A stretch of 27,969 bases of DNA from a virus (Duplodnaviria > Caudoviricetes). Below, in pieces: positions 1-9,340 of this stretch. The translations under genes and the position numbers were made by a program. Each line of letters begins with the position of its first letter. Position 1 is the first letter of the stretch. The notes under the pieces were generated by a model. The model made no database searches and was not told the origin of the DNA. It saw nothing but the letters and a program-made list of their open reading frames with translations. Where the stretch lies: IMG/VR virus record IMGVR_UViG_3300020045_003671, positions 1 through 27,969 of that record. One strand, written 5' to 3'.

Positions 1-1
1 C

Positions 2-244
2 GGTGTCGATGACCAACGTTGAATACTTTTTGATTTGGGACTCATCTGATAAAACTGCTTTACAATTGTTAGCTACAATAGTGTCTTGTCTGTTTATGGC
101 ACGGTCTGAGCCTCTATCTGTATCTAATAAAATAGGATTATTTGCAGTATTAAATACTGACGTTTTACCAACTCCAGGACTGCCATATAAAAGAATAATA
201 ACTGGTCTTTTCGGCATTGTGTCTGATTTCTTTACAATAGTCAT
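2..244 (-). CDS. AAA_24-family P-loop ATPase, Sak4-like phage recombination protein (5' part, runs off window start)
   Basis: Not in ORF track. Manual translation from ATG 244: MTIVKKSDTMPKRPVIILLYGSPGVGKTSVFNTANNPILLDTDRGSDRAINRQDTIVANN...YSTLVIDT. Walker A GSPGVGKT, LLDxDRG and Walker B-like LVIDT. Confidence 0.85.
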   Translation of the reverse strand, partial: MTIVKKSDTMPKRPVIILLYGSPGVGKTSVFNTANNPILLDTDRGSDRAINRQDTIVANNCKAVLSDESQIKKYSTLVIDT

Positions 245-255
245 GATTTTTAGTT

Positions 256-747
256 TTAATTTGTTATTAATGATAATTCTTTTCTGTATGCAAAACTTGC
301 TTCAAATTCACTTTTAAAATATCCAATATGTTTGTATTTTCCGTTTACTCTTATTTTGGCACTCCATTTTTTAGCAAACTTATTCCAACTAACACCAATA
401 AATTTAGATGATCGTTCGGTATTTTTTATTGAATGACTTACATTTTTTCTATTGGTAGTAATTTCTAAATTATCTTTATGGTTATTTAGTTTATTTTCAT
501 CTAAATGATGAATTAAGTCTTTCATACCATTTGGAATAAAGTTTTTAAATGTCATTGCAACCAAAGTATGAATTTTAAATTCTTTTCTTTTTTGGTCTTT
601 ATATAGCCAAACTCTTAAATATCCTTTTCTGTTAATAGACGGTTTTAGTTTAATTGGTGTTTTTGACATATAAGATATAATATTGCCAAATTCATCTATT
701 TTATATAGACTGTCATAATTAGGAATATCAAAATATTTTTTTCCCAT
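256..747 (-). CDS. NUMOD4-HNH-AP2 homing-type endonuclease
   Basis: NUMOD4-like YFDIPNYDSLYKIDEFGNI; HNH core IHTLVAMTF...IHHLDENKLNNHKDNLE; AP2-like SSKFIGVSWNKFAKKWSAKIRVNGKYKHIGYFKSEFEA. Start moved from 831 to ATG 747 because a separate small ORF occupies 728-850. Confidence 0.85.
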   Translation of the reverse strand: MGKKYFDIPNYDSLYKIDEFGNIISYMSKTPIKLKPSINRKGYLRVWLYKDQKRKEFKIHTLVAMTFKNFIPNGMKDLIHHLDENKLNNHKDNLEITTNRKNVSHSIKNTERSSKFIGVSWNKFAKKWSAKIRVNGKYKHIGYFKSEFEASFAYRKELSLITN

Positions 748-850
748 TGTAGTATTTATTTTGATCGTAATTACTGCATTCTTTACATACTCCATGTTCG
801 TTAAGTACGGCAAGGTTACCGCACTTAACACAATGCTTTTTAGATTTCAT
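728..850 (-). CDS. 40-aa zinc-ribbon microprotein
   Basis: Manual translation MKSKKHCVKCGNLAVLNEHGVCKECSNYDQNKYYNGKKIF. Two CxxC motifs; overlaps both neighbours in the operon. Confidence 0.65.
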   Translation of the reverse strand: MKSKKHCVKCGNLAVLNEHGVCKECSNYDQNKYYNGKKIF

Positions 851-1196
851 AGTATTTGTGAATTAACTCATGTATTTTATCCAGATTATCTAGATTGACT
901 TTGATCTCTTCGCCATCGTAAAAGAAAGTAGTTGAATATTTCATTACTGATCGGCTTGATATTGCAGTCTGGTTGTTTTCGTCAGCTTCTGGGTATTCAG
1001 TGTAAAGTTCTAAAACTGATTCAATCATATATTCATCAGGACAATGATAAAAATAATTGATTCCGATAAATTCAACAACTTCATTTAATTGAAATTCAAT
1101 TGTCTGTTTTGAATCTTCGGTGTTAAACTTATTTGTTAAATGATTAACGATTGCGTTAATTTCAATTTCTGATAATTCGATTGCTGTGATTTTCAT
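840..1196 (-). CDS. hypothetical acidic phage protein
   Basis: 118-aa ORF with A-rich start context (CTAAAAACCCAGTAATG) just downstream of a TAnnTTTG promoter. Confidence 0.75.
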   Translation of the reverse strand: MKITAIELSEIEINAIVNHLTNKFNTEDSKQTIEFQLNEVVEFIGINYFYHCPDEYMIESVLELYTEYPEADENNQTAISSRSVMKYSTTFFYDGEEIKVNLDNLDKIHELIHKYYEI

Positions 1197-1228
1197 TACT
1201 GGGTTTTTAGAATGTTTAATTTATACCT

Positions 1229-1261
1229 CAAAAATACTAAATATAGGTATGCAAATATCAA
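1229..1261 (-). promoter_or_regulatory. Bacteroidota sigma70-type promoter for the recombination-gene operon
   Basis: -7 box TATTTTTG at 1236-1229 with TTG 22 nt upstream. The downstream context GTATAAATTA matches that of the promoter at 4189. Confidence 0.6.
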
Positions 1262-1578
1262 TTAATAGTATGTTCTGCAACATGAAAAGTAAGATTCTTT
1301 AGGTATTTTCATAACACTTTCTTTCCGTGATCTTTTACCATCCAGTTGAAAGACTTTTTTGATTACCTTTATTAGTCTAACCTACCTCACATTCAAAAAC
1401 CGCATCGTGCGACGGCTTATTCTTTTACTTGACTACGAAAAATTTATCACGTCAAATGTTACAAGTGTACAGCATTGCACCCACTTTAGCCAAATAAATA
1501 TATTTTGAGGAAGTTCCGGTCTTTTGTCTGAATAAGGAGTCAGGTTGTGGAGTAAGACTTCGAGCATAACCACGCAAT

Positions 1579-1616
1579 AAAAAACAAAACCATTCCCGAA
1601 ATGAATCAGAAATGGT
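1579..1616 (-). terminator. Rho-independent terminator/attenuator
   Basis: ACCAUUUCUGA-UUCAUU-UCGGGAAUGGU followed by a U-rich tail. Confidence 0.6.
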
Positions 1617-1702
1617 ATGTTTTAAGCTGCAAGGCTCTGTATCGGTACGTTTACCGAATATTGTATGATATGAATCGACTATAATACTTCCATTACCTTG
1701 CA
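1579..1702 (-). ncRNA. candidate structured leader/small RNA ending in an intrinsic terminator
   Basis: Promoter at 1739-1708. The 5' UGCAAGG (1702-1696) pairs with CCUUGCA (1634-1628), and there is an inner hairpin at 1642-1657. An 11-bp stem at 1616-1589 has G-U pairs that work only on the minus strand and is followed by UUUGUUUUUU. Confidence 0.5.
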
Positions 1703-1707
1703 TACGT

Positions 1708-1739
1708 CAAAAGTAGTATTTACATCTGACATATGCAAA
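1708..1739 (-). promoter_or_regulatory. Bacteroidota sigma70-type promoter
   Basis: TTTG (1739-1736)-N20-TACTTTTG (1715-1708), a full consensus match. Confidence 0.65.
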
Positions 1740-1745
1740 TTTATT

Positions 1746-1907
1746 TTATTCAGATTCAATATTGCTTTTTTCTGGTTCGCTTTCTTGTTTATCACAACAT
1801 TCTTTGCACCAAATTTCTAAACCCATATGCCATAAATATTCTCCATCATCAGGAGTTTTACCGCATATGTCACAAATATAAATTCGTTGAGTTATTCTGT
1901 ATCCCAT
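1746..1907 (-). CDS. 53-aa zinc-ribbon protein
   Basis: Not in ORF track. MGYRITQRIYICDICGKTPDDGEYLWHMGLEIWCKECCDKQESEPEKSNIESE, with CDIC...CKEC. Start context TAAAAACTAAAACATG; a TATTTTTG box lies at 1945-1938. Confidence 0.75.
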   Translation of the reverse strand: MGYRITQRIYICDICGKTPDDGEYLWHMGLEIWCKECCDKQESEPEKSNIESE

Positions 1908-2002
1908 GTTTTAGTTTTTATTTGATTAATACTGAGACAAAAATAGCCATACTTAGCGAATAAATACAGCTACTTTATGTGTTGTATAACAGTTGTAAAG
2001 AA

Positions 2003-2566
2003 TTACTTTACTACTGGCTTGAAATATTTAGATTCGACTAAGCACGTACATTTACTTTCTCCAATTAAAAACAAAGTATTTAAAAATGAATTTTTTGATT
2101 TATCAACTTCATATCTATTGCCATTTATAAACTCAGGTGCATATTGATTATAGATACATTCCCAATATTCGCTTTCTACCTGTTTAACTGGCTTGCTATG
2201 TTTCTGGTGCAACGCTCGCTCTTTCCAATAATTCAATGATTTTAAATTCTCATCATTACACGAATCAAGTAAACTACATTTACTTTCAAGTACTTTATTT
2301 TTTGATCGTAGTTCTGTAATCTCAGTAACCGCATCCTCAAAGTACTTTTTAACGTCAGCTATTTGGCATTCTTGCAATTTGATTTGATCTTCGTAATCTT
2401 GCATTGTCTGAGCCGATACGGTTGAAAAGAACTGATAGTCTTTTAGCTTCTTTTTAGCCTGTTTAAGACGCAAAAAGTAGAACAGCGATAACATTGCAAA
2501 GAACATGATTAAAACTACGTCAATAAGCGTGTAAGCGTTCCAAATGTTTAAGATAAAGTTTTGCAT
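2003..2566 (-). CDS. membrane-anchored coiled-coil hypothetical protein
   Basis: N-terminal hydrophobic helix (LIDVVLIMFFAMLSLFYFL) followed by heptad-rich region; start context TAAAAACTAAAATCATG. Confidence 0.75.
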   Translation of the reverse strand: MQNFILNIWNAYTLIDVVLIMFFAMLSLFYFLRLKQAKKKLKDYQFFSTVSAQTMQDYEDQIKLQECQIADVKKYFEDAVTEITELRSKNKVLESKCSLLDSCNDENLKSLNYWKERALHQKHSKPVKQVESEYWECIYNQYAPEFINGNRYEVDKSKNSFLNTLFLIGESKCTCLVESKYFKPVVK

Positions 2567-2584
2567 GATTTTAGTTTTTAATGG

Positions 2585-2878
2585 TTATTTGAAAAATACA
2601 TTTTTAAATTCAGTCTTGCTTTCAACAAATCTTTTAAATCCGTCTTTTCTTATAAATTGTTTTCCTTCAAATTCAAGTCTTGCAGCTACTATCATCCAAG
2701 TTCTATTTACCCGATTGAAATTTGAGATTATAACATCATTTGATAAATTACCTGCAATCTTTTCTTGTAAGTTAGTAAAGCAAGCGTTTATCATTTTTGA
2801 TATACCATCAATCAGCCCTTCTTTTGTTGTATCATCTGTATTTCTTGCAATTAATAAAAGTTCATCATCTAGGAACAT
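2585..2878 (-). CDS. hypothetical phage protein
   Basis: ORF track 2585..2956. Start moved to ATG 2878 (MFLDDELLL), which has an A-rich context and follows the stop of the upstream small ORF. Confidence 0.7.
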   Translation of the reverse strand: MFLDDELLLIARNTDDTTKEGLIDGISKMINACFTNLQEKIAGNLSNDVIISNFNRVNRTWMIVAARLEFEGKQFIRKDGFKRFVESKTEFKNVFFK

Positions 2879-2882
2879 AGTT

Positions 2883-3005
2883 TTAATTTTTAGATTGTTT
2901 TTTAACTCGGTTTGATAATAAGTAAATAGCAATGATAATAATGCAATATGCTGCAAATATTAATTGAAATGGTAAGTTATCAAGGTAGGTAAATAGTTCT
3001 TTCAT
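2883..3005 (-). CDS. 40-aa single-pass membrane microprotein
   Basis: Not in ORF track. MKELFTYLDNLPFQLIFAAYCIIIIAIYLLSNRVKKQSKN. ATGA overlap with the upstream gene; hydrophobic core and basic tail. Confidence 0.6.
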   Translation of the reverse strand: MKELFTYLDNLPFQLIFAAYCIIIIAIYLLSNRVKKQSKN

Positions 3006-3217
3006 TTCAGTATGTTTTTAATTTTAATGATTATTTTCGCAATAGTCAATGATAAAGCAAACGCAATGATCAAAGCCAGAAATAAGGTTGAGTCAAAGCT
3101 GATAGCCTTAGAAACTGAATTAATAATAGTTTCAGAGAAAGGAATAAATAGCACAATTGCACAGAATCCGATTAAGGCAATCCAGAATTTTAGGGTAATT
3201 TCAGTTAGCTTTTTCAT
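3002..3217 (-). CDS. small two-helix membrane protein
   Basis: Two hydrophobic segments with Lys-rich ends; tiles the operon. Confidence 0.7.
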   Translation of the reverse strand: MKKLTEITLKFWIALIGFCAIVLFIPFSETIINSVSKAISFDSTLFLALIIAFALSLTIAKIIIKIKNILK

Positions 3218-3218
3218 G

Positions 3219-3377
3219 TCAGTATTTATTATTTTTGTTGTTTAGCATTAACTTCTTTTGATTCTCAAATTGTTTTTGTCTTTCTCGTTTATCTCGTTCT
3301 CCTGAATCAAGTCCAAAATATCCTGATGCAGGTTGATTCGGAATAAATGCCGGAATCTTATTTTTTCGCTTTTTCAT
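3219..3377 (-). CDS. 52-aa basic hypothetical protein
   Basis: Not in ORF track. MKKRKNKIPAFIPNQPASGYFGLDSGERDKRERQKQFENQKKLMLNNKNNKY. Stop lies 1 nt before the next ATG and fills the operon gap. Confidence 0.55.
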   Translation of the reverse strand: MKKRKNKIPAFIPNQPASGYFGLDSGERDKRERQKQFENQKKLMLNNKNNKY

Positions 3378-3573
3378 TTAGTTTAGAGTTTATCAGGTTA
3401 ATAATTGATTCATAAGTATCAGTCTGCATTTGTCCTCTGCCATTATAATAGCGGTTGATTGTATTAGCAGATATTTTCAACTGTCTGGCAATTTCTGCCT
3501 GAGATAATCCGATGTTTTTAGCTTCGTTGATCTTTTCAATAAAGATGGTTAATAGTGATAATTTTTCATTCAT
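3358..3573 (-). CDS. XRE/Cro-family helix-turn-helix regulator
   Basis: GLSQAEIARQLKISANTINRYYNG is a classic HTH_XRE pattern. Likely start ATG 3573 (MNEKLS), just after the upstream stop. Confidence 0.85.
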   Translation of the reverse strand: MNEKLSLLTIFIEKINEAKNIGLSQAEIARQLKISANTINRYYNGRGQMQTDTYESIINLINSKLNEKAKK

Positions 3574-3577
3574 AACT

Positions 3578-3790
3578 TTAAAGTTGATCTGTAAATTCAA
3601 ATACAGCGTTAATGTCATCCTTAATTAATGCTTTTTTAAGCAACTTAATTGTTGCATCAAGTAGGGTATTTTCAAGTTTGTTAATTTCTTCAAACTCGTT
3701 ATGTTCTTTGATTACTTCTTCGTTTCTAGCAATCTTTTTATTGATCTTGTCAATGTCATTTAAAATTAATTCTCTTGTTTCTTTTTTCAT
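3578..3790 (-). CDS. small coiled-coil hypothetical protein
   Basis: 70-aa helical, charged ORF in operon orientation. Confidence 0.7.
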   Translation of the reverse strand: MKKETRELILNDIDKINKKIARNEEVIKEHNEFEEINKLENTLLDATIKLLKKALIKDDINAVFEFTDQL

Positions 3791-3836
3791 TTTATTTCCC
3801 CGTAGCCAGATAGGACAGCGTTAAATGGTTAGTTAA

Positions 3837-4157
3837 TTATTTTGTACGTTGGTATCCTAAGCCTAAACATTTGTAACATATTCCTCCATCTGGCCCGTAT
3901 CCCACATTTCCAGAACCACCACATTTTGGACAAGTTTCAATGTCGCTTGGACGTTCTACTTTTCCGGTGCGAACCAAGTGAAAAAACATTTTATCAAAAG
4001 TCAAACGTCCCTGACTAGTACATGATTTGCCATTACCGTACCAAAGTACCGTTTTAATGCCCGATACAGGCTTTCCGTTAAGTTGATTAAATGATTTACC
4101 AACAGATGATTGAAGATACTCCATTTTATAAGCTACTTTGATTTCTTCTACTGTCAT
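3837..4157 (-). CDS. hypothetical protein with C-terminal DnaJ-type zinc finger
   Basis: CPKCGGSG...CYKCLGLG (two CxxCxGxG); first gene after the leftward promoter. Confidence 0.8.
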   Translation of the reverse strand: MTVEEIKVAYKMEYLQSSVGKSFNQLNGKPVSGIKTVLWYGNGKSCTSQGRLTFDKMFFHLVRTGKVERPSDIETCPKCGGSGNVGYGPDGGICYKCLGLGYQRTK

Positions 4158-4188
4158 GATCGTTTGTTTTAGTGATTAATTTATACAC

Positions 4189-4221
4189 CAAAGATAACTA
4201 TATTTAGTAATACAATCCAAA
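4189..4221 (-). promoter_or_regulatory. leftward early promoter
   Basis: TTTG (4221-4218)-N21-TATCTTTG (4196-4189). Confidence 0.7.
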
Positions 4222-4265
4222 TATTTATCTGACTAAATTTTGTGTTTAAGAACATACTGATTTGT

Positions 4266-4296
4266 TTTGACGGTGTGACTATATATAGTACATTTG
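4266..4296 (+). promoter_or_regulatory. rightward early promoter, divergent from the leftward one
   Basis: TTTG (4266-4269)-N19-TACATTTG (4289-4296). Confidence 0.7.
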
Positions 4297-4325
4297 AGCA
4301 TACAAAAACACTAAAAACTAAGGAA

Positions 4326-5261
4326 ATGAATGTATTAAGTTTTTTTGATGGGATATCATGTGGGCAATTGGCATTAGAACGAAGTAATATTAAAGTTCAT
4401 AATTATTATGCGTGCGAAATAAAAAAACACGCAATTCAGTGTACTAAATTTAATTTCCCAAATACTATTCAATTAGGTGATGTTAGAAATGTTCATTATA
4501 CTAAAATTGGTATTGAAATAGATATTATTCCTGGACATACTAGATTTATTGAATCGAATATAGATTTGTTTATTGGCGGTTCTCCATGCAAGGGTATTAG
4601 CCGACTAAATCAAAAACAAGAAGGATTAAAACACAAAGAAAGTATATTGTTTTGGGAATGGGTAAGGGTATTAAGAGAAATACAAATAGAAAATCCTGAT
4701 GTATTATTTTTGCTTGAAAATACACACGGTAATAAAGAAGCAACTAATATTATAACTGAAACATTAGGAGTACAGCCAATATCTATAAATAGTAAATTAG
4801 TTTCGGCACAAAATAGACCTAGATATTATTGGACTAATATTCCAGGAATAAAACAACCTTTTGATAAAAATATTACCACAAAAGATATATTTGATTATTC
4901 AGGCGAAATAGTTTCTAAAAATAGAGTAAAATGGATTGAAAATGAAAGCGGTAAAAATTCAATCAAAAAAGGATATACTAGAGTTAATCCATATCCTAAA
5001 AGTGGTTGCTTAACGGCAAATGGGCATATTAAATGGAATGAGAATTATTTATATAAAGATGGTATTTATAGATTTTTATCTAAGTCAGAATTAGAAAAGT
5101 TACAAACGGTAACTCCAGGATATTGCGACTGTTTAAATTATGATGAGGCGTATGATGTTTTAGGAGATGGTTGGACAATTGATGTAATTGCGCATATATT
5201 ATCCTTTATTCCATTTAAAAAACCGGATAGCCTAAGTAACTATCCGGTAACTAAAAACTAA
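4326..5261 (+). CDS. orphan DNA (cytosine-5)-methyltransferase
   Basis: Motif I VLSFFDGISCG, catalytic GGSPC, FLLENT, QNRPRYYW, motif X LGDGWTIDVIAHI. Start set at ATG 4326 (MNVLSFF), downstream of the promoter. No adjacent restriction gene seen. Confidence 0.92.
   Translation: MNVLSFFDGISCGQLALERSNIKVHNYYACEIKKHAIQCTKFNFPNTIQLGDVRNVHYTKIGIEIDIIPGHTRFIESNIDLFIGGSPCKGISRLNQKQEGLKHKESILFWEWVRVLREIQIENPDVLFLLENTHGNKEATNIITETLGVQPISINSKLVSAQNRPRYYWTNIPGIKQPFDKNITTKDIFDYSGEIVSKNRVKWIENESGKNSIKKGYTRVNPYPKSGCLTANGHIKWNENYLYKDGIYRFLSKSELEKLQTVTPGYCDCLNYDEAYDVLGDGWTIDVIAHILSFIPFKKPDSLSNYPVTKN
5217..5248 (-). terminator. Rho-independent terminator on the minus strand
   Basis: Perfect 9-bp inverted repeat ACCGGATAG/CTATCCGGT, extended by two U-G pairs on the minus strand; U6 tail on the minus strand only. 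Confidence 0.6.
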
Positions 5262-5282
5262 ACCTATGAAACAAAAAGAAGT
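5217..5282 (-). ncRNA. candidate antisense sRNA complementary to a shared early-gene start motif
   Basis: TATATTTG box at 5294-5287. Body UUUCAUAGGUUUAGUUUUUAGU, then terminator ACCGGAUAGUU-ACUUA-GGCUAUCCGGU-UUUUU. No minus-strand gene lies nearby. Confidence 0.45.
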
Positions 5283-5303
5283 GAAACAAATATAGTGTTT
5301 TGC

Positions 5304-5334
5304 TTTGAAATAATACGATAATTGAGTATATTTA
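5304..5334 (+). promoter_or_regulatory. near-consensus rightward promoter
   Basis: TTTG (5304-5307)-N19-TATATTTA (5327-5334), one mismatch to TAnnTTTG. Confidence 0.4.
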
Positions 5335-5355
5335 TAATCACTAAAAATTGAAATA

Positions 5356-5544
5356 ATGAAATGGACACCACAACAACTTAAAGCAATTTCAGATTCAAAA
5401 GAGAAATTAATTATTGAATCTCGGAATGGAGATACAGAAGCCGCTCACGGCAACGCTGACGACATTCTATGTAAATTATTAAACGAATTCGGATTGAATG
5501 AGATTACTGAAATTTACAACAATATTGAAAAATGGTACGCATGA
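5356..5544 (+). CDS. hypothetical phage protein
   Basis: 62-aa ORF (DTEAAHGNADDILCKLL...KWYA) with A-rich start context. Confidence 0.75.
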   Translation: MKWTPQQLKAISDSKEKLIIESRNGDTEAAHGNADDILCKLLNEFGLNEITEIYNNIEKWYA

Positions 5545-5696
5545 ACCAACTATCTAAACTACAATCAAAGTTCAGCGAAGAAATAAAACGCTATCAGATT
5601 ACAGAAGTAACGGTAATAGGCTGAACAGTAGAAATAACGGCAAAGGAGCGTATTCCGTGGGAGTTGTTTGAATCAATTAAATGCGAGTTGCTATGA
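5541..5696 (+). pseudogene. small gene interrupted by an in-frame TGA
   Basis: MNQLSKLQSKFSEEIKRYQITEVTVIG*TVEITAKERIPWELFESIKCELL*. ATGA overlaps at both ends, single internal TGA at 5622-5624. Confidence 0.5.
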
Positions 5697-5971
5697 AAGA
5701 CTATCAATCACTAATATTCAGCTATGGCATTTTAACCGTTCTTTTTGTTCTCGAGCATTATCAAGAGATTGAAAATTATGAGGAATGCAAAAAGATAATT
5801 GATACACTTGATAATATTGAAACCAGATACGGAATGAGATTACCAAGACGAATTGACGAAGAAACCAAATTGATAGTTTTGCATTCATATCGAAAGTTTA
5901 ATCTAACCGGAGTCAATGCAGAGCATAATTCAAAACACTATGCAAGTTTAATCATCGAAGGTAAACTATGA
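5693..5971 (+). CDS. hypothetical phage protein
   Basis: ORF track 5681..5971; likely start ATG 5693 (MKDYQS). Confidence 0.7.
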   Translation: MKDYQSLIFSYGILTVLFVLEHYQEIENYEECKKIIDTLDNIETRYGMRLPRRIDEETKLIVLHSYRKFNLTGVNAEHNSKHYASLIIEGKL

Positions 5972-6153
5972 AAAAGATGTCAACTTATATTTTAATCACT
6001 ATATTACTTTGCTATTGTGCCTTTGAAATAGGCTCATATTTTAAGTATCAATCTGAATTAAGGCAATTAACTAAAGACAAGTTAAGACTTGAAATTCAGC
6101 TATTAAAGATACAAATTGAACAGAACGAAATAAACCTTCAAAAAGAATATTGA
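5968..6153 (+). CDS. small membrane-anchored coiled-coil protein
   Basis: N-terminal hydrophobic helix plus Leu-rich heptads; ATGA-coupled to the upstream gene. Confidence 0.7.
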   Translation: MKKMSTYILITILLCYCAFEIGSYFKYQSELRQLTKDKLRLEIQLLKIQIEQNEINLQKEY

Positions 6154-6524
6154 TGAAAACATTTGAACAGATTGAAACTAAAAAAGAAAATCCATTAAAA
6201 TCAGGATGGTATAATACAGACAAAGGATCATTGTATTTTTTTTATAATTTACATGGTCTTAATGGATGGAGTTGTCGCGATGATAAACTATCATTAGAAT
6301 ACCCTAAGTTTTGGTATAAGGTGGTTTTTGAAAAAGTACCTAATTTATCAGGTGCAACAAAAGAGCAAAAAGAACTGATAATAAAGGAACTTACTGAGAC
6401 AACTGCTAAAGCCGTTTTAACTGTATTTGTTGCGCTTGGATTAAAGGCATTTATTGAAACAAAAGTAACCAATGACGCAACCGGTGATAGTTATATTTTA
6501 AAGTTCTATAAAACAGAAAACTAA
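6153..6524 (+). CDS. hypothetical phage protein
   Basis: ORF track 6150..6524; ATG at 6153 overlaps the upstream stop. Confidence 0.7.
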   Translation: MKTFEQIETKKENPLKSGWYNTDKGSLYFFYNLHGLNGWSCRDDKLSLEYPKFWYKVVFEKVPNLSGATKEQKELIIKELTETTAKAVLTVFVALGLKAFIETKVTNDATGDSYILKFYKTEN

Positions 6525-6609
6525 ACCTATTGATAATGAATGAAAATTTAGATAACTTTGAAGAAGAATTTATTTTTAATTGGTATAACTAAAAATAACA
6601 GGATTTAAT

Positions 6610-6712
6610 GAAATTATGGCGGAATTGGTATACGCATCCCCCGAGTGAGGAAAACAGACTTGTAATCACTATAATAAATATCTGTTTAAAGGTTCGAATC
6701 CTTTTAATTTCA
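6610..6712 (+). tRNA. non-canonical tRNA-like element (Leu-type D arm, aberrant anticodon arm, oversized extra arm)
   Basis: 7-bp acceptor stem GAAATTA/TAATTTC with discriminator A; D arm TGGCGGAATTGGTATACGC; T arm AAAGG-TTCGAAT-CCTTT; two hairpins in between; no encoded CCA. Confidence 0.6.
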
Positions 6713-6746
6713 CAAACTTAAAGTAAATAATTAATAATTAAGTTAA

Positions 6747-7370
6747 ATGTCTGGACAAAAACAATATACACTTGAAGAACTTGAAAACGATTTAAAACAA
6801 TCTCATAAAGATTTTATTCGAGAATATTTCATAAATGGATGGAATAGAGTAAAAGCTTACATGAAAGTTTACCCTGATTCAAGCTATCAGGCTGCTGCTG
6901 TATCAGCTAATGAAATCCTAAAAAATCCTAAAGCGCAACAATTCTTAAATTATATAAAAGAAGACCTAGAAAAAACTTGTTTTATCAATAAAGCAAGCAT
7001 TTTAATGGAGCTAATAAAAATTGCAAAGTCAAATATTACACACTTTCATGATGATTGGATCGAATTAACGGATTGGGAAGTAATAAAGGCCGATAATCCT
7101 GATATAATGGATTCAATTGAAAGCATTGATACTAAGACTGAAACTAAGACATATAATCGAGGCGGTGAAAATGAAATAGATGCCGAGGTCAAGTATGTCA
7201 AGATTAAACTATTCAGCAAAACAGACGCAATAAAGACCATTAACGAAATGATGGGATATAAGTCAGCTGATAAGATTGAGCATTCAGGAACAATTAAAAC
7301 CGTTGATTTATCTCAATTATCTACTGAGGAACTTATATTGAGAGCGAACGCAAGTAATAAATTGAAATAA
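6747..7370 (+). CDS. terminase small subunit
   Basis: N-terminal HTH pattern HKDFIREYFINGWNRVKAYMKVY...AAVSANEILKNPKAQ; C-terminal KIKLFSKTDAI...DKIEHSG; lies upstream of the large subunit. Confidence 0.85.
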   Translation: MSGQKQYTLEELENDLKQSHKDFIREYFINGWNRVKAYMKVYPDSSYQAAAVSANEILKNPKAQQFLNYIKEDLEKTCFINKASILMELIKIAKSNITHFHDDWIELTDWEVIKADNPDIMDSIESIDTKTETKTYNRGGENEIDAEVKYVKIKLFSKTDAIKTINEMMGYKSADKIEHSGTIKTVDLSQLSTEELILRANASNKLK

Positions 7371-7458
7371 AAATAGACTTTTTGCTTTCGATTATTAAAA
7401 GTGTTACCGAGTCAAGACAAGCGATTGTAAGCAGTAAAAACACTAACTAACTGATTTG

Positions 7459-7626
7459 ATGACTAAAACAGAAAACTATATATTTACCAAATATAATCAG
7501 TCTAAATGGCCTTATATTGGGGTTAATGAATTAATCTACGATCTTAGAAACGAATTAACCAAAGACCAGATTAAGGATGAAATTCGAGAGTTAAGAAAGT
7601 CTGGAAAGATTGAAATGGTTGGTTGA
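7459..7626 (+). CDS. small winged-helix-like protein, possibly truncated by a frameshift
   Basis: Not in ORF track. MTKTENYIFTKYNQSKWPYIGVNELIYDLRNELTKDQIKDEIRELRKSGKIEMVG. Another frame continues NGWLIKIIET* to an ATGA overlap at 7643-7646. Confidence 0.55.
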   Translation: MTKTENYIFTKYNQSKWPYIGVNELIYDLRNELTKDQIKDEIRELRKSGKIEMVG

Positions 7627-7642
7627 TTAAAATAATTGAAAC

Positions 7643-7918
7643 ATGAAAATAACGCTTCCAATATTATTTAATACAAATAGTACTCAATCTTTGCAAGATG
7701 CTGACATTGATTTTGATTTAAGGGAATGTGAAATCAGAAATATGACTTTTTACAATATTGATGCAATTGCTGATTATTTTGAAAACGACATAGAATACTC
7801 ACAAATCTATTATTGCAATACAAGTGTTTATTGCACCTTAAAAAAGAATGAAGTTGAAAGAATGATTGATGGTAAAATGAAATCAATTAGCTTTGAAGAT
7901 TTAACTAAATGGAGCTAA
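7643..7918 (+). CDS. hypothetical protein between terminase subunits
   Basis: 91-aa ORF whose stop directly abuts the large terminase ATG. Confidence 0.75.
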   Translation: MKITLPILFNTNSTQSLQDADIDFDLRECEIRNMTFYNIDAIADYFENDIEYSQIYYCNTSVYCTLKKNEVERMIDGKMKSISFEDLTKWS

Positions 7919-9340
7919 ATGACTTCTCACGAATTTGAAATCTATATAGAACTTTATAAGCGCAAGCAATACGCTCATATTCCCATAGGTATTTATCCAG
8001 ATGGGAATTACTTTTATATGACTTCAAAGCAAATATTGACGCTTGAACTATTGAACGATGAAAATACTACGGACATTGGCTATGGTGGAAGCGCTCGATC
8101 AGGCAAGTCGATCATTGAATGTACTGCTATTATTTTTGATTGCTTTTCATATCCTGATATTGCGTGGGGATTAGCACGCAAAGAACTATCGACGCTAAAA
8201 AGGACTGTTTTATTGACCTTATTCAAACAATTTGAATTTTACGGTATAGTTGATGCAAAGCAAAACAAAAGTGCTAAATTCACATATAATTACAATCAGG
8301 AATTAAATAAAATATCGTTCAATAATAAATCAGATGTTTTTTTAATTGATACAGCTTATAAACCTTCCGATCCGTTAAACACTAGATTCGGGGGTTTTGA
8401 GTTGACTAGATCAGCAATAGATGAATCAAACGAAACTGAATTATCAGTCGTTTATAAGTTATTTGAGCGTACCGGATGGAGAAACAACGATACTTACAAT
8501 TTAAAAAGAAAGCAATTTGAATGCTTTAACCCTGCTAAAAACCACGTTTACAACCGTTATTACATTCCTTTTAAAGAAGGAACTGAAAGCGATCACAAAC
8601 GATTTATTCAAGCACTTCCGGCAGATAATCCGCATCCGAGCGTAAAAGAATGGATTGAAGATTTGACAAAAACAGGAGACCAGATAACAATTCAACGTCA
8701 GATATTAGGTAACTTCGATTATGACGATGATCCTTCTGCTTTATGTGGATGGGATGCAATATGTGACATATTTACCAATGATCATGTAATCGGAGGACAA
8801 AAGTATATTTCTGCCGACTTAGCAATGCAAGGGAGGGATAAATTCATTGCAGGGTATTGGGAAGGAAATAGATGTACGGTTTCAATTGACAAAGGCAAAT
8901 CAACAGGAAAATCAATTGAATTAGACCTAAAAGAATTAAAAGATAGTAAAGGTGTTGGCAATTCAAATATAGTGGCTGATAGTGACGGGTTAGGGGCGTA
9001 TTTAGAAAGCTACATTAATAATATTAAAACCTTTCACGGAGGAAGCACCAAATGTGATAAGAAGTTTGGAAATTTAAAATCTGAATGTGGATTTAAATTG
9101 TCAGAACTTATCAATAATAGACAGATTAAAATTATCTGTTCACAGTTTCAGGAGGAAGAAATAAAAAAAGAAATATCAGCCTGTTTGAAGATTGATAATT
9201 TAGATAATGACACGTCAAAAAAGAAGTTAATCACAAAGGATAAAATGAAAGAAAGCCTAGGCCATTCGCCTGACTACTTAGATATGCTGTTGATGAAAAT
9301 GATATTTGAAGTGAAAAAAGATTTTATCGCAATTTGGTAA
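7919..9340 (+). CDS. terminase large subunit
   Basis: Walker A YGGSARSGKS, Walker B SAIDES, coupling motif CFNP, DNPH, nuclease acidic motifs SADLAMQGRD and HSPDYLD. Confidence 0.93.
   Translation: MTSHEFEIYIELYKRKQYAHIPIGIYPDGNYFYMTSKQILTLELLNDENTTDIGYGGSARSGKSIIECTAIIFDCFSYPDIAWGLARKELSTLKRTVLLTLFKQFEFYGIVDAKQNKSAKFTYNYNQELNKISFNNKSDVFLIDTAYKPSDPLNTRFGGFELTRSAIDESNETELSVVYKLFERTGWRNNDTYNLKRKQFECFNPAKNHVYNRYYIPFKEGTESDHKRFIQALPADNPHPSVKEWIEDLTKTGDQITIQRQILGNFDYDDDPSALCGWDAICDIFTNDHVIGGQKYISADLAMQGRDKFIAGYWEGNRCTVSIDKGKSTGKSIELDLKELKDSKGVGNSNIVADSDGLGAYLESYINNIKTFHGGSTKCDKKFGNLKSECGFKLSELINNRQIKIICSQFQEEEIKKEISACLKIDNLDNDTSKKKLITKDKMKESLGHSPDYLDMLLMKMIFEVKKDFIAIW

Follow-up and report, generated by a model that had tools for sequence, protein, structure and literature searches.

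The window analyzed here is an entire virus record of 27,969 bases (estimated completeness, 58%) that encodes terminase small subunit, portal, tape measure, and HNH genes. A portal search matched 43 records, mostly Bacteroidota, with likeness to phages of Polaribacter, Bacteroides, and Croceibacter; the best two cultured matches carry the labels Rhodobacteraceae phage and Pseudanabaena phage. The host is likely a member of the Bacteroidota. Short early genes run leftward from about position 4190, and a C5 methyltransferase gene (4326 to 5261) and short genes run rightward. Promoters with a TAnnTTTG box, given as the consensus of the Bacteroidota sigma-A −7 box in PMC7366714, head both directions (4196 to 4189, leftward; 4289 to 4296, rightward).

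At the end of the methyltransferase gene, the minus strand holds a predicted small RNA (sRNA) unit resembling FopS. As described in PMC11697453, FopS of Bacteroides thetaiotaomicron comprises 14 paralogous sRNAs of 65 to 70 nt that are driven by canonical promoters and join a single-stranded seed to a terminator; by pairing at the start regions of SusC-type mRNAs, they block translation of these. One copy is reported there from a Caudovirales phage. The features of the locus are as follows.

5287 to 5294, minus strand: −7 box TATATTTG, matching the Bacteroidota sigma-A consensus and invariant in five of five close copies
5217 to 5282, minus strand: predicted 66-nt sRNA, its 5′ end placed 5 nt past the box by analogy with FopS loci
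5249 to 5282, minus strand: U-rich 34-nt seed, unpaired in the computed fold
5271 to 5264, minus strand: seed core UUUCAUAG, common to the FopS consensus and the chromosomal copies
5268 to 5266, minus strand: anti-AUG triplet CAU within the seed
5217 to 5248, minus strand: intrinsic terminator (11-pair stem at 5248 to 5222, then a U-tract)
5266 to 5295, plus strand: 9-amino-acid (aa) open reading frame (ORF) MKQKEVKQI, which mirrors the seed and lacks conservation
5304 to 5358, plus strand: promoter (TTTG at 5304 to 5307, 19 nt, TATATTTA at 5327 to 5334) and A-rich leader to the ATG at 5356
4326 to 5261, plus strand: C5 DNA methyltransferase (PF00145), its last 15 codons overlapping the sRNA antisense

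Along the minus strand the order is TATATTTG, four bases, the 34-nt unpaired stretch, the stem, and the U-tract, and the seed is the mirror image of a start region, AUG included. The original prediction had proposed a minus-strand box (5294 to 5287) and terminator (5248 to 5217) enclosing an anti-start sequence, and the sequence bears out all of these; the fold is stable (z = −3.5 for 5282 to 5212), and read on the plus strand the hairpin lacks a U-tract. The −33 box is indeed not evident, no TTTG lying 18 to 22 nt upstream of the TATATTTG box. The 9-aa ORF had been placed one base off, at 5267 to 5296. Two features had been overlooked: the terminator and part of the seed sit within the final methyltransferase codons, and the plus-strand promoter (5304 to 5334) stands back to back with the minus-strand box, belonging to the conserved module and to a predicted target. 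The methyltransferase tail looks like read-through, because homolog L001 ends earlier. A methyltransferase search found one locus, with no sRNA unit in its 300 nt downstream, and no homolog was listed for the protein encoded at 5356.

By itself the TAnnTTTG box is not above chance in the window (53 occurrences; 45.4 expected). The combination of box, core TTTCATAG, and terminator has a single instance in the window and none in 200 dinucleotide shuffles, the core having been picked after the family was known. Rfam scans of positions 1 to 8000 and 5150 to 5400 gave, at the unit, only subthreshold and terminator-driven matches (RsaOG, E = 0.17; trpB, E = 1), which were rejected.

The original prediction had proposed a search of related phages for the promoter, seed, and terminator, and four close relatives and three more distant phages carry the unit. 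A viral hairpin search gave 68 matches, five with this layout (L004, L005, L019, L027, and L045) and the rest unrelated hairpins. Across the five close phages (the window and four relatives), 124 of 142 positions of the module, from A-tract to next ATG, are invariant; the four relatives share one contig-name prefix and are thus not independent. Flanking genes differ on both sides of the module, and upstream ORFs stop before it or enter it in differing frames. The seed is its most variable part, the plus-strand promoter half being more conserved: the anti-AUG U is lost in two of the five copies, one of which also frameshifts the minigene, and the perfect ACTAAAAACTAA complement is missing in three, whose early genes still carry that leader.

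Among portal relatives (23 loci compared; many others too short to span the region), units with another stem were found in three phages. The unit of L004/L241 (82% portal identity) follows a lysis-region gene on the same strand and has one mismatch in its box, that of L078/L243 (77%) is antisense within a run of rightward genes, and that of L256 (52%) comes after terminase. In two of these three phages the unit lies elsewhere in the genome. G066 (68% portal identity, terminal repeats) gave no model match at E ≤ 2 and has a similar leader motif; G068 gave weak model matches only. A blastn search of the module against cultured phages returned chance matches only, and the exact module pattern had no match among metagenome contigs; the phage has no cultured close relative. 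Further weaker seed-plus-hairpin units occur in related phages at L265 (G070:C1:8655-8752) and L264 (G068:C1:26589-26679), with E values of 0.05 to 0.09. Many viral contigs (L003, L006, L010, and similar loci) carry a different recurrent unit in which the same stem arms stand some 40 nt from a reverse −7 box, probably a separate sRNA-like family.

The module could act locally or be decaying: the terminator would halt leftward read-through at a cassette border, the RNA would pair in cis and mark the plus-strand transcript for cleavage, and the module would persist as a recombination joint. All 66 nt of the predicted RNA would find their complement in the methyltransferase read-through transcript, and the swapped genes on either side, the better-conserved promoter half, the absent −33 box, and the anti-AUG lost in two of five copies all fit such a reading. 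We nevertheless consider it fairly unlikely: the L004 and L256 units are codirectional, after a lysis-region gene and terminase, respectively, without a convergent transcript, and neither a terminator nor a joint needs an anti-start seed common to chromosomal sRNAs.

That seed recurs in a chromosomal family. Species genomes were searched with a pattern of start text, 8 to 30 nt, and reverse −7 box, no terminator being required, which gave at least 125 matches at no fewer than 121 loci. Among the matches listed, an antisense terminator lay within 90 nt in 64 of 85 from Bacteroidota versus 1 of 40 others, and in 4 of 85 control windows; phylum was taken from record titles, and the listed matches are interrelated, so the Fisher P value overstates the difference. 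The single non-Bacteroidota match with a terminator among those listed (L183) is on a short contig in a Rhizobium-labeled bin and may be mis-binned. Copies are multiple per chromosome (seven in G003), and the 14-nt core of the phage is identical in chromosomal copies. A phylum-wide model search was positive in at least 5 of 121 genomes (center included), a lower bound, with 33 candidates scored per genome.

A covariance model was built from 24 chromosomal sequences only (18 of the wider set and 6 FopS). Its top match in the window was 5294 to 5215 (29.2 bits; E = 0.016), followed by one at 20.7 bits; the score is modest and the calibration rough, three close phage copies having E values of 0.25 to 0.74. 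Stem pairing in 71 aligned matches reached 76.8%, versus 42% when shuffled; this is not strong evidence, since the alignment had been fitted and covariation is to be expected of any terminator. At L123, L175, L194, L188, L168, L146, L141, and L117, a second model match often lies about 100 to 300 nt away, suggesting that the wider family forms tandem arrays in chromosomes.

A seed-only metagenome search returned 100 matches, of which 78 were kept after removal of 4 with short flanks and 18 duplicates. Just 1 of the 37 cases with a terminator had a long ORF (36 had a short one), and 25 of the 41 cases without a terminator were real or internal gene starts with a long ORF. An exact −7 box was unlinked to the terminator in this set (4/37 versus 4/41; in a second count, 5/36 versus 2/25), and many members therefore start elsewhere or use other promoters.

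These counts bear on a further reading, in which the hairpin is there by chance and the stretch is simply the plus-strand start region of either a lost early gene or a 9-aa minigene. The start context is strong, MKQKEVKQI is intact from ATG in three of five close copies and from TTG in one, and the peptide may well be translated from read-through mRNA. The original prediction had itself named the start region of this ORF as a rival explanation; the ORF is not conserved in relatives or family: the start is TTG in two of the five copies, L019 is frameshifted, L004 and L243 encode unrelated peptides, and the plus-strand ORFs at the 64 chromosomal copies, among the matches listed, range from 4 to 61 aa with no common sequence. 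Real gene starts with such text, moreover, almost never carry an antisense terminator, as the single long ORF among 37 indicates, and we regard the minigene as highly improbable.

FopS (RF04319) offers the closest comparison. Like FopS, the unit has a −7 promoter box and an unpaired 5′ part followed by an intrinsic terminator (66 nt, 34 unpaired, against about 65 to 70 nt), and its core UUUCAUAG is identical, mirroring AUG-AAA starts; by eye, 20 of 26 aligned letters of the FopS 5′ consensus agree with the phage seed. Unlike FopS, it lacks the 5′ GUGUUU start, its core lies about 6 nt farther from the 5′ end, and the linker differs. The −7 box is exact and at FopS spacing, but the −33 element is absent, whereas nTTG is present in 32 of 32 FopS loci (and in 30 of 63 other chromosomal copies). 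FopS is multicopy per genome, whereas one copy was found in this 58%-complete record, and the best predicted targets of the unit are phage early genes, not SusC genes.

RF04319 gave no match at the unit at E ≤ 10 (Rfam gathering cutoff, 56 bits). With a short FopS motif, loci were located in 42 of 61 genomes at the Bacteroidaceae level; these score 72.7 to 78.9 bits on RF04319, and none of five wider-family loci tested on it scored. A hidden Markov model (HMM) from 31 FopS loci gave 1.4 bits at the unit, inside the shuffle range, and HMMs of the FopS and wider sets detect each other at 14 to 16 bits. Since it does not score on the Rfam FopS model despite the common core, the unit is a FopS-like variant rather than FopS itself. 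The wider FopS-like class, defined here by the core TTTCATAG, a downstream terminator, and a short unconserved opposite ORF, takes in the unit, which has all three. GibS of B. thetaiotaomicron also places an AU-rich unstructured seed over start codons (PMC7366714), and R1 is common to GibS and FopS (PMC11697453); as these sources describe it, GibS is set apart by its 145-nt length, second seed R2, and noncanonical promoter.

The stretch from 5294 to 5217 is thus probably an sRNA gene of the FopS-like class. This reading is well supported because conservation is independent of flanking genes and frame, the chromosomal family is multicopy, and the FopS core is present; the gene of the original prediction is strengthened on these three counts, and its transcript stays a predicted one. 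An anti-start sRNA is not a novel kind of system, as FopS acts in this way and a phage copy is already reported (PMC11697453). In the literature searched, which included a 2026 review (PMC13750123), neither the wider class nor any phage copy put to the test was reported; the distribution figure of PMC11697453 may bear on this.

TAAAAACTAA occurs four times in the window (0.45 expected; 0 of 100 shuffles), each time 13 to 14 nt ahead of an ATG. The predicted targets are as follows.

4326, plus strand: methyltransferase start, 12-nt perfect match
1905 to 1920, minus strand: leader and start of early gene 1907, 11-nt match, −16.8 kcal/mol
2564 to 2580, minus strand: leader and start of early gene 2566, 11-nt match, −13.2 kcal/mol
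2876 to 2893, minus strand: leader and start of early gene 2878, 7-nt perfect match in register, −16.2 kcal/mol
4155 to 4173, minus strand: first gene behind the leftward promoter (box 4196 to 4189), 7 nt in register, −15.0 kcal/mol

Perfect matches of 10 to 12 nt had been claimed for four early starts; they hold for 4326 (12 nt), 1907 (11 nt), and 2566 (11 nt), and that at 244 shrinks to 9 nt. The looser matches described at 1196, 2878, and 5356 are 7 to 8 nt perfect. In the comparison with shuffled controls that had been suggested, seed pairing with 18 early and middle starts averaged −13.7 kcal/mol versus −10.0 kcal/mol for shuffled seeds, with 0 of 500 as strong. The seed favors early over 20 late starts (P = 0.0013; 3 of 500 shuffles equally biased), a preference in which it ranks second of 52 family seeds. 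The leader motif, TAAAA, marks promoter-proximal genes: all six early starts close to a −7-like box have it, as against 3 of the remaining 12.

For a host-type comparison, 408 genes were drawn from 800 kb of sequence in two Bacteroidales genomes. The best phage starts (5356, 4326, 1907, 3377, and 2878) were equaled or beaten by 6 to 22 of the 408, and starts 244 and 1196 are ordinary (125 and 256 of the 408, respectively, pair as strongly). Relatives without a perfect seed match, and L242, in which no sRNA was detected, retain the same or a similar leader, which counts against specificity; its persistence in the latter argues for a general strong start independent of the sRNA. Bacteroidota ribosomes are described in PMC6847099 as using upstream adenines (−3, −6, −12, and −13) in place of Shine-Dalgarno (SD) pairing. 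The TAAAAA run of the early genes, at about −14 to −10, fits the A-12/A-13 enhancer of this Kozak-like signal, which would explain why early starts resemble one another; as a plus-strand cis signal, however, it does not account for a single copy being framed by a box and a terminator in antisense. The longest perfect seed complement outside the unit (14 nt; 6517 to 6530, plus strand) precedes, out of register with its ATG, an 18-codon ORF whose end resembles a longer ORF at L019.

We put at about even the prospect that the sRNA occludes A-rich starts, with the promoter-proximal early genes of the phage as the best predicted targets. Host polymerase would transcribe from the −7 box, and termination at 5217 would yield the 66-nt RNA, whose seed could base-pair with many mRNAs over their A-rich leader and AUG, keeping ribosomes from loading. 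The RNA would accumulate during infection, damping early translation, and host mRNAs with the same start text would probably also be struck. Because Bacteroidota ribosomes use upstream adenines and not SD pairing (PMC6847099), strong starts would converge on one A-rich text, and a single U-rich seed could therefore cover many.

The same sRNA could be aimed at the host, in which case a captured copy of the host's FopS-like family would either titrate an RbpB-type protein or reduce exported and outer-membrane proteins; were the phage receptor one of these, superinfection exclusion could follow. FopS itself represses SusC-like transporters (PMC11697453), and the phage shares its 14-nt core with chromosomal copies. 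Signal-peptide-like N termini were found in 14 of 20 real starts that perfectly complement a phage-type seed, a BamE domain protein and a fucosidase among them, versus 112 of the 408 sampled genes, with weak enrichment in G005 (P = 0.024). Yet the pattern forces an MK start, and with ATGAAA starts (37 of 73) as the reference the excess falls short of significance (P = 0.14); G003 shows no enrichment (P = 0.72), so that results conflict between the two genomes sampled. Both the signal-peptide rule and the calling of starts are also crude, and the sampled genomes stand in for the actual host; we judge this aim unlikely. The one-to-many silencing in trans of the original prediction gains from early-start pairing that beats shuffled seeds, with either own early genes or host mRNAs as its possible targets.

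Extending the preferred reading of early-gene occlusion, it is possible, though doubtful, that an anti-start-codon sRNA of the host was recruited by a group of Bacteroidota phages to slow their own early translation genome-wide, with the seed retuned to the shared early leader, and that FopS is one branch of a larger class, present in chromosomes and phages, that uses the SD-less A-rich start as one address for many mRNAs. FopS has been described as conserved within Bacteroidaceae; the same design was found here in Prolixibacteraceae, Marinilabiliaceae, Weeksellaceae, and a phage group, and the forms outside Bacteroidaceae that were tested, five loci, escape the Rfam model. Should the early starts of the phage itself be what its copy represses, this would be an RNA-only, protein-free early-to-late switch; if it represses host envelope genes, it would be a 66-nt device for superinfection exclusion or host takeover.

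Elsewhere in the window, a tRNA-like segment (6610 to 6712, plus strand) scores 40.4 bits, above the Rfam tRNA cutoff, with no ARAGORN call; it is over-long for a normal tRNA and lies directly ahead of the terminase small subunit gene. Four relatives have an intact 51-codon gene that is interrupted here by an internal stop (5541 to 5696, plus strand). The minus-strand region from 1330 to 1700 is mostly without genes, carries minus-strand terminators at 1616 to 1589 and 1413 to 1399, and may hold more noncoding RNAs.
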